Positions 18,193 through 20,382 of a stretch of 64,000 nt of DNA are shown here, one piece after another. The stretch lies in the NCBI RefSeq assembly GCF_003334355.1, contig NZ_QOWP01000002.1. The stretch is one strand, 5' to 3'. Within the stretch, counting starts at the first letter, position 1; each line of letters begins with the position of its first letter. A program made the position numbers and the translations under genes. The notes under the pieces are model-generated. The model saw only the letters and a program-made list of their open reading frames with translations, did not search any database and was not told where the DNA came from. This DNA is from Escherichia coli (lineage in GTDB: Bacteria > Pseudomonadota > Gammaproteobacteria > Enterobacterales > Enterobacteriaceae).

Positions 18193-18843
18193 TTACATGG
18201 CGTAGTAATACGCTTTCACCTGCTCCCAGTCCGCTTTGGGGATTGGCTCCAGATATTTTTCCAGCTGGCGGAAGTCATGATTAATCGCTTTATCGCGACG
18301 CAAGCGGCGACGACTTTTCTCCAGGTCAAGAAAACCAGCTTCTGCCTTACCTTCTGTTTTCACATAGATATGGCGAACATAACAACAGCCATGCTGACGA
18401 TTAATGCTATGCATTTTCTTAAACGCCAGCGCCACTGCTTTCAACATGGCTTGCCGTACTTCGTCAGAATAAGGCGATACTGCATGCTGGGCATACCAGT
18501 CAGCAATGCTGATGAACCCCGCCATATCTTCAGTCACCAGCAACGCACGCCATTCACCCTCAATTTTCACCGCTTCACCAAAAACGATCTTCGGCACGAT
18601 GACACCGGCCCGCTCCAGTTCTTTAATTACCGCAACCTCACGGACAATCGTCGGTCGGCCGAACGGATAACGTACGGAATGAAACAGATGATGCGTCATG
18701 CGCTTTACATACAGCTTTTTGCCGTTGCGCTCGACGCATTGCACCCCGCTCATACCATTACGGCGATAGTTAGGCTCTTCAACCCAGTCGCCCTCTGTTG
18801 CCCACCAGTGATTAAATTCGTCGTACTTTGCTGAAACTGCCAT
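18193..18843 (-). CDS. inaA: Acid-inducible Kdo/WaaP-family kinase-like protein
   Basis: 216-aa ORF beginning MAVSAKYDEFNHWWATEGDWVEEPNYRRNG. Confidence 0.88.
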   Translation of the reverse strand: MAVSAKYDEFNHWWATEGDWVEEPNYRRNGMSGVQCVERNGKKLYVKRMTHHLFHSVRYPFGRPTIVREVAVIKELERAGVIVPKIVFGEAVKIEGEWRALLVTEDMAGFISIADWYAQHAVSPYSDEVRQAMLKAVALAFKKMHSINRQHGCCYVRHIYVKTEGKAEAGFLDLEKSRRRLRRDKAINHDFRQLEKYLEPIPKADWEQVKAYYYAM

Positions 18844-19057
18844 ACCCTATCGCCTGTCGTTTTTATTAACGACAATGACTATAGGTGGTTACCTGAGGAA
18901 AATCTTAATGAAACGTGTCGTATTAATGAATTTCTTTTGCCACTACTAGCTTGACACCGCTTTTACCCTTCATTTGCAGCGCATAGATTCCACCAGCCAC
19001 TACCACTAATAGTGCGCCCAGCAGATAAAATGTGAATTTAATCAGGCGGATACAGCG

Positions 19058-19264
19058 ATGAATTTTATTCGACAGGGATTAGGCATCGCCTTACAACCAG
19101 AGTTAACGCTGAAACGCATTGCAGGTGAATTGTGTTCCGTTCCTCTCGAACCAACTTTCTATCGACAGATTTCGTTGCTGGCTAAAGAAAAGCCGGTAGA
19201 AGGCAGTCCACTGTTTTTACTACAAATGTGCATGGAACAATTAGTGGCGATTGGAAAAATTTGA
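19058..19264 (+). pseudogene. yfaH: Remnant of a LysR-family regulator (C-terminal substrate-binding fragment only)
   Basis: 68-aa ORF MNFIRQGLGIALQPELTLKRIAGELCSVPLEPTFYRQISLL resembles the end of a LysR effector-binding domain; no N-terminal HTH portion upstream. Confidence 0.6.
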
Positions 19265-19305
19265 TATGAGACAGGATGGCGCATGAACGCCATCCTGCAG
19301 TAACA

Positions 19306-20382
19306 TTACTCTTTATTAAGAAATTTTACTGCCTTATCAGGGAAATCAGTAAACAACCCATTTACACCCGCTTTGTTATACAGAGCATCATATAACTGAT
19401 TCACATCAGTTGTGTATTCAGGCAGTTTATCTGACCGCACGGTATAAGGATGCACTACCAGCTTGTTCTGCTGAGCATCTTGCACCATGCCAGTGAGTTT
19501 GATATTACCCGGCTGCGATGTCTCCTCAATCAACATATGGTAATCCGGACCAATACCATCTGCATATTCCGCCACCTGTTTCATGGCACCCGGCTTAAAC
19601 ATCCAGTCGTAGTTGTAATTAACCCAGCTTCCGTCCGGCTGTTTCTGCTGCGTTTCATTCCAGTCGGTATAGGCAATCAGCTGTACCAAATTGAGCTCCA
19701 TGCCCATTTTGGGTTCCAGCTCATTCTTAATACGCTTCAGCTCATCAGCATCAAAACATTGCAAATAAACTTTATCGTCCTTACCGGTGTAACCATATTT
19801 CTTCAGCACTTCCAGCGTTTTTGCCGCAATATCCTTCCCTTCCTGATGATGGAACCACGGCGCTTTGATTTCTGGATAGATACCGATATTTTTCCCGGTA
19901 GAGTGATTTAACCCCTGAACAAATTCAATCTCTTCTTCAAAGGTGTGCACCCGGAAGTCGGACTTACCCATTGGGAAACGCCCCGGATAAGTCTGTACTT
20001 TTTTACCGTTTTCAATATCGAAACCTTCGGTAAATTTCAGCGACTTAATTTCATCCAGCGTGAAATCTATCGCGTAGTAACGACCGTCTTTGCGCGCCCG
20101 ATCCGGGAAACGATCGGCAACATCAGTAACACGATCGAGATAATGGTCATGCAGAACAACCAGATGGTCGTCTTTGGTCATCACCAAATCCTGTTCCAGA
20201 TAATCCGCTCCCTGCGCATACGCCATCGCTTTTGCTGGCAGCGTATGCTCCGGCAAATATCCACTGGCACCGCGATGGGCGATGACTATTTTTTCGTTGC
20301 TGTCCGCCGCCATTGCACTGCTTCCCATGACTATAGTGCTCATCATGATCGCCATGCTAAGGTTTTTCAGCTTCAATTTCAT
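19306..20382 (-). CDS. glpQ: Periplasmic glycerophosphodiester phosphodiesterase
   Basis: Track ORF 19306..20439. Refined start MKLKLKNLSMAIMMSTIVMGSSAMA (signal peptide) gives 358 aa, followed by the HRGASGYLPEHT motif. Confidence 0.95.
   Translation of the reverse strand: MKLKLKNLSMAIMMSTIVMGSSAMAADSNEKIVIAHRGASGYLPEHTLPAKAMAYAQGADYLEQDLVMTKDDHLVVLHDHYLDRVTDVADRFPDRARKDGRYYAIDFTLDEIKSLKFTEGFDIENGKKVQTYPGRFPMGKSDFRVHTFEEEIEFVQGLNHSTGKNIGIYPEIKAPWFHHQEGKDIAAKTLEVLKKYGYTGKDDKVYLQCFDADELKRIKNELEPKMGMELNLVQLIAYTDWNETQQKQPDGSWVNYNYDWMFKPGAMKQVAEYADGIGPDYHMLIEETSQPGNIKLTGMVQDAQQNKLVVHPYTVRSDKLPEYTTDVNQLYDALYNKAGVNGLFTDFPDKAVKFLNKE

Follow-up and report, generated by a model that had tools for sequence, protein, structure and literature searches.

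The interval between inaA and glpQ in the 64,000-nucleotide stretch of Escherichia coli DNA analysed here (the window) is almost certainly the non-functional scar left by the deletion of a single gene pair, composed of a gene for an MFS transporter and a divergent gene for a LysR-type regulator. The interval is the already known yfaH pseudogene and is ordinary. Its ancestor would have carried the pair between inaA and glpQ, with the transporter gene on the minus strand and the regulator gene on the plus strand, and one deletion of 1,879 bp between two copies of a short repeat, CAGATAAA, one in each gene, would have removed the 5' parts of both genes together with the promoter region. The survivors, the last 34 codons of the transporter gene and the last 80 codons of the regulator gene, would have been left back to back, lacking a promoter and a native start, and would have drifted neutrally since then. 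The original prediction had proposed the scar of a deleted gene pair at this place, and the position is indeed occupied by a LysR gene in intact form, alongside a divergent MFS gene, in some 1,230 of the complete E. coli genomes.

The gene order in the window is nrdB, yfaE (plus strand), inaA (minus), the interval, glpQ (minus) and glpT (minus). Both flanking genes are intact according to the list of open reading frames (ORFs) and to the RefSeq annotation of identical or near-identical loci: inaA, which codes for the lipopolysaccharide kinase InaA, lies at 18193-18843 and glpQ at 19306-20382, both on the minus strand. Positions 18700-19400 of the window share 100% nucleotide identity with strain 504239 and 99.6% with BW25113. 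The equivalent of 19058-19264 is listed in the curated MG1655 record (MG1655 2349687-2349893) as the pseudogene yfaH (b2238; NCBIfam NF007272 / PRK09729), which sits at the same locus with equivalent coordinates and differs from the window by a single amino-acid change (R versus S at remnant residue 32) and otherwise by nothing substantive. This K-12 record marks only the 68-codon ORF, whereas the true remnant has 80 codons, and it leaves the adjoining MFS remnant unannotated. PGAP, in contrast, annotates two partial pseudogenes in the interval, in BW25113 as well as in five further scar-type strains: a 'hypothetical protein, missing N-terminus' (18923-19027, minus strand) and a 'LysR family transcriptional regulator, missing N-terminus' (19022-19264, plus strand).

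The reading frames on which the original prediction was built are all present: a 68-codon ORF at 19058-19264 (plus strand), a 13-codon ORF preceded by GAGG at 18908-18949 and a minus-strand frame that ends at 18923. The first had been taken as all that is left of a LysR-type regulator, some 68 codons. It is indeed a C-terminal remnant, although the homology spans 80 codons, with 19022-19261 corresponding to amino acids 213-292 of the 292 of the intact O157:H7 protein (tblastn, 86% identity, E 6e-44); the 3' remnant of the LysR-family gene, including its stop codon, thus occupies 19022-19264 on the plus strand, and yfaH is its ATG-initiated part. In the intact gene, ATC (Ile) stands where yfaH has its ATG (19058), and the 68-codon ORF exists only because this Ile codon mutated to ATG. 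The absence of the HTH-encoding 5' part, also predicted, is borne out by a tblastn search with the full protein, in which amino acids 1-212 found no match within positions 18600-19500. The remnant therefore lacks the N-terminal winged-HTH DNA-binding domain expected of a LysR-family member, and in place of a complete Pfam LysR_substrate domain (PF03466) it matches positions 131-189 of 209 (E 1.2e-6). It does score 162.2 bits (E 2e-48) against NF007272, a 68-aa NCBIfam equivalog model for YfaH with a curated cut-off of 139 bits; since this model also matches amino acids 226-292 of the intact LysR regulator, the YfaH 'family' is a LysR tail.

The minus-strand frame (...FYLLGALLVVVAGGIYALQMKGKSGVKLVVAKEIH*), which contains a hydrophobic stretch and had been described as a transmembrane-like fragment, is real and can now be identified as the 3' remnant of an MFS transporter gene (18923-19027, minus strand; last 34 codons and stop). 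It matches amino acids 363-396 of the 396 of the O157:H7 transporter (tblastn, 94% identity, E 1e-15). Of the twelve transmembrane helices in two six-helix bundles that characterise the MFS, it keeps the last helix and the C-terminal tail. The frame has no ATG, and its internal GTG would give 27 codons; a search of the 34 amino acids against NCBIfam found no match. Both gene remnants are far above chance, and tblastn found no match in the window to the remainder of either intact protein.

The intact counterpart is found in the O157:H7 strain H2495 (L002), whose inaA-glpQ interval contains three genes, coding for a 396-aa MFS transporter (minus strand), a divergent 292-aa LysR regulator (plus strand) and a 356-aa hypothetical protein (plus strand). 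The O157:H7 regulator and transporter genes (WP_000176738.1 and WP_000660231.1) are syntenic with the two remnants, and in comparison with them the window lacks amino acids 1-362 of the transporter, the shared promoter region and amino acids 1-212 of the regulator, which comprise the HTH and the greater part of the effector-binding domain. The interval thus has what is expected of pseudogenes, with intact homologues at the syntenic position in relatives and with promoter and native starts lost.

Alignment of the window with L002 locates the joint. Positions 18600-19029 correspond to L002 5901-6331 and positions 19017-19276 to L002 8199-8457, with a 13-bp overlap (19017-19029). At base level, the window retains a single copy of CAGATAAA, at 19022-19029; this 8-bp direct repeat is present twice in L002, at 6324-6331 in the MFS gene and at 8203-8210 in the LysR gene (11 of 13 positions identical when the flanks are included). 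The stretch that was lost comprises the first 362 codons of the MFS gene, the 151 bp between the two divergent genes and the first 212 codons of the LysR gene. An identical joint is present in 3,074 of 5,426 genomes and in the seven scar loci that were aligned. A short direct repeat at a joint is a classic signature of illegitimate recombination or slippage. The joint in the window, with its single exact copy of the repeat, resembles those of microhomology-flanked spontaneous bacterial deletions, and, judging from the joint only, microhomology-mediated illegitimate recombination or replication slippage is the likely mechanism.

The state of the locus was surveyed in 5,426 complete E. coli genomes. 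The scar, counted where one place covered at least 80% of window positions 18700-19400, is present in 3,074 genomes (~57%), so that ~43% do not have it. The deleted MFS-LysR middle, and with it the intact pair, is present in 1,233 genomes (~23%), 95 of them with an allele ~88% identical. A short form, composed of inaA, ~200 bp and glpQ with neither remnant, accounts for 1,064 genomes (~20%), and ~55 genomes show other states, such as an IS1-associated loss of glpQ and beyond. The segment with the hypothetical gene is present in 1,053 genomes. In one of the strains with other states, E. coli 2020C08-115 (L008, 4145-5000), IS1 lies directly upstream of inaA and is followed by nudI, from which it follows that glpQ, glpT and onwards to nudI have been lost. 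The highly divergent MFS-LysR allele is exemplified by O145:H28 RM12581 (L006, 2886-6243; ~88% nucleotide identity, ~95 genomes). Its LysR tail has 76.5% identity and saturated synonymous sites, the hairpin downstream is a different one and glpQ has 1,080 bp; this allele resembles an import by recombination from a distantly related lineage of Escherichia.

Comparison with related genomes, which had been suggested as a check, extends the intact state beyond E. coli: an intact LysR gene is at the exact position in E. whittamii and in the cryptic clades of Escherichia, with the order glpQ-LysR-MFS-inaA. In several Citrobacter species, in Intestinirhabdus and in a divergent genome labelled 'E. coli' (L033), glpQ is directly beside inaA. 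The adjacency of glpQ and inaA in these outgroups, against the order found in Escherichia, suggests that the pair probably arrived by insertion within Escherichia and that part of it was lost later in the lineage to which K-12 belongs. A Pseudocitrobacter metagenome-assembled genome (L016, 5698-7879) has an MFS gene next to inaA whose protein is 87% identical to the E. coli one, paired with a far more divergent LysR regulator (63%), and glpQ and glpT are not nearby; this could mean either that the MFS gene became a neighbour of inaA before Escherichia arose or that the pair is mobile. The spacer unique to the short form (~70-110 bp; L003 1744-1814 and L012), for which homology was detected neither with the full forms nor with the spacers of Citrobacter, could be either ancestral or filler acquired after a deletion.

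The LysR remnant is evolving as a pseudogene should. Over the 80-codon tail, dN/dS is 0.03-0.19 among intact alleles, and between the window and the nearest intact alleles it reaches 1.58 in one comparison and 0.88 in the other, the latter from 12 non-synonymous and 4 synonymous changes, that is, only 16 substitutions. All scar copies have changes at six residues that do not vary among the intact copies, that of E. whittamii included, and a secondary disabling mutation, a 1-nt deletion flagged by PGAP that shifts the frame of the remnant, is present in strain 4114, one of the seven aligned scar loci. The 68-codon ORF is still open in the other six, which is weak evidence for its retention. Small as these counts are, the pattern is that of relaxed selection and points to neutral evolution of the remnant.

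To the left of the MFS stop codon the DNA is of a different nature. The 214-bp spacer described in the original prediction is not orphan DNA: its left part (18844-18922) is the 5' region of inaA, with a -10 and a -35 element conserved out to Citrobacter. The putative inaA core promoter (18878-18921, minus strand) has TATAGT at 18883-18878 as its -10, the -35-like TTAAGA at 18908-18903 and a marbox-like sequence, ACGACACGTTTCATTAAGAT, at 18921-18902, which overlaps TTAAGA and has 3 mismatches to AYNGCACNNWNNRYYAAAYN. The two hexamers are conserved across three genera, Escherichia, Citrobacter and Intestinirhabdus, as TTAAGA and as TATAGT/TATATT. The marbox-like site is the only one with at most 4 mismatches in 18844-19010, and a stricter scan found no site within 2 mismatches. 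A sigma-70 scan of 18780-19330 called no promoter-like site, not even the putative inaA promoter. Activation of PinaA by MarA has been published (PMC5257004). Judging from these motifs and their conservation, the DNA left of the MFS stop would be a functional inaA promoter, responsive to MarA/SoxS/Rob, with its 5' UTR. The MFS stop codon and the seven codons before it (GTAGTGGCAAAAGAAATTCATTAA; 18923-18946, minus strand) coincide with an element, CGGCAAAAGAAATCCATTAA, that is also found upstream of inaA in short-form genomes that have no MFS gene (L003/L012), so that the inserted MFS gene seems to terminate within sequence that was already present upstream of inaA.

At the other end of the interval, to the right of the LysR stop, a stable hairpin lies just 3' of glpQ (19272-19297, minus strand; 10-12 bp stem, -23.2 kcal/mol, z = -6.0). 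It is present in locus states A-E and in E. whittamii, and in the short form its stem shows a compensatory change from G-C to A-T. The terminator scan did not call this hairpin because no adjacent T-run follows it; it is nevertheless the probable terminator of glpTQ. A search of the interval for RNA families found no match in Rfam; an RNA gene had been considered on the strength of a sub-threshold match to RmaA (24 bits, where the gathering score is 57); the glpQ hairpin was responsible for this match, and the idea was rejected.

Other repeats were noticed in the neighbourhood. An inverted repeat with 14-bp arms (GCCAGATACGACGC / GCGTCTTATCTGGC) lies at 18152-18183, where yfaE and inaA converge; it resembles either a REP-type element or a bidirectional terminator. 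At 16524-16760, the mechanically called nrdB ORF runs upstream through repeated ...RLIRPTAR... motifs, which are typical of REP/BIME repeats, in the nrdA-nrdB spacer; MG1655 also annotates in this spacer, on the opposite strand, the 11-codon yoaM.

The 13-codon ORF (MKRVVLMNFFCHY; 18908-18949, plus strand), with its GAGG at 18896-18899, 8 nt upstream, is antisense to the -35/marbox-like element of inaA and to the 3' end of the MFS gene, and its ATG is the complement of a CAT within the marbox-like site. ORFs of this kind (10-30 codons, starting with ATG and preceded by a Shine-Dalgarno sequence) are no commoner than expected: the window contains 24, and Markov-1 random sequence that matches it in composition gives 48 +/- 7.5. 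The ORF is not conserved either: ATG is changed to ATA in L003, L010, L011 and L012, GAGG to GCGA in L002, L005 and L006, and the stop is lost in the scar-type strain L038. Neither the conservation of frame, start and Shine-Dalgarno sequence nor the above-chance frequency expected of a small-protein gene is thus found, and the curated MG1655 record, which includes tiny validated proteins such as the nearby YoaM, has no small protein in the interval. These comparisons indicate a chance ORF antisense to the inaA promoter, which would not be an annotatable gene.

A single deletion has to be weighed against other histories and against residual functions of the interval. The original prediction spoke of a gene-decay zone, and a scar produced by several independent decay events could be imagined from the extra 1.7-kb segment that O157-type strains have between the LysR gene and glpQ and that is absent from the window, as well as from strain 98208 (L007), in which the scar occurs together with the segment. 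The junction in the window (LysR stop, ATGAGACA, GGATGGCGCATGAACGCCATCC, glpQ) is, however, arranged as in genomes that have the intact pair and no segment, namely L005 (E. coli) and, as outgroup Escherichia, L010 (Escherichia sp. E1V33) and L011 (E. whittamii), so only one deletion is needed. This match, together with the GC content of the segment (33.6%, against 43-50% in its neighbours), identifies the segment as an insertion in some strains and not as a loss here, and a second deletion at the LysR-glpQ junction was rejected on these grounds. The remnant in L007 has a 5' end of K-12 type and a 3' end of O157 type, a mosaic that indicates recombination. Several independent events are therefore very unlikely, and 'gene-decay zone' overstates the case because the single deletion explains the window. 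As to the segment itself, it spans 8458-10166 in L002, with its insertion point at ~19273-19276 of the window, between the LysR stop and the glpQ hairpin; it encodes a 356-aa orphan protein rich in Lys, Asn and Ile (WP_001301786.1), for which no match was found in NCBIfam, PADLOC or PHROGs, and its gene is frameshifted or interrupted by IS1 in some strains. The remnants could also have been kept for cis-acting signals, with inaA upstream activating sequences in the MFS tail and a glpTQ terminator or stability element in or after the LysR tail. The agreement of GTAGTGGCAAAAGAAATTCATTAA with the inaA upstream element conserved in MFS-less short-form genomes speaks for this possibility, as does the conservation of the hairpin after glpQ in all locus states, but the element covers only ~20 nt and the hairpin lies beyond the LysR stop, so that both are outside most of the remnant DNA; moreover, the short form shows that inaA and glpQ manage without the remaining ~320 bp, and the remnant drifts neutrally. 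Retention for such signals is unlikely, though less so than a history of several events.

The micro-ORFs had further been proposed as possibly still expressed small proteins, and the same could be asked of the 68-aa yfaH remnant, either of them being exapted and expressed by read-through or from a cryptic promoter. The yfaH ORF is open in most of the scar-type genomes sampled and has a dedicated 68-aa NCBIfam model, the 13-codon ORF has a well-spaced GAGG, and RNA over yfaH varies with Cpx status, since qRT-PCR found it condition-dependent and 7.7-fold up in a delta-cpxR strain with plasmid-borne nlpE overexpression (pnlpE) (PMC9600279). That RNA was measured over yfaH means that some transcription crosses the region, on one strand or the other; glpTQ read-through or antisense transcription could explain it. 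Against a small protein stand a dN/dS of ~1 with changes at otherwise invariant positions, the frameshift in one strain, the lack of any promoter-like site in the sigma-70 scan of 18780-19330, the loss of the ATG, Shine-Dalgarno sequence and stop of the micro-ORF in one relative or another, its chance-level frequency, its absence from the curated MG1655 set and the ~43% of E. coli genomes that do not have the scar. The proposal is hence not supported for the 13-codon ORF, and the exaptation of either ORF is extremely improbable; the interval is presumably not expressed as protein. Highly speculative too, if marginally less so, are two consequences of the scar itself: by bringing glpTQ to within ~460 bp of inaA, upstream of it and in the same orientation, separated by only one hairpin, it could allow read-through to couple inaA to glycerol-3-phosphate regulation, or YfaH, translated at a low level, could interfere with other LysR-type regulators via its remaining dimerisation surface.

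The importance of the single-deletion scar is small, because yfaH is already catalogued as a pseudogene and has been employed as a neutral site for marker insertion: in MG1655 a marker was put in its place to provide a neutral linked site (PMC2714960). What is added is the exact joint, with its 8-bp repeat and 1,879-bp deletion, the recognition of the partner remnant as the tail of an MFS transporter, the census of locus states in complete genomes and the placement of the 13-codon ORF on the putative inaA promoter, which should keep it from being annotated as a gene. The locus can serve small-protein annotation as a clean negative example.
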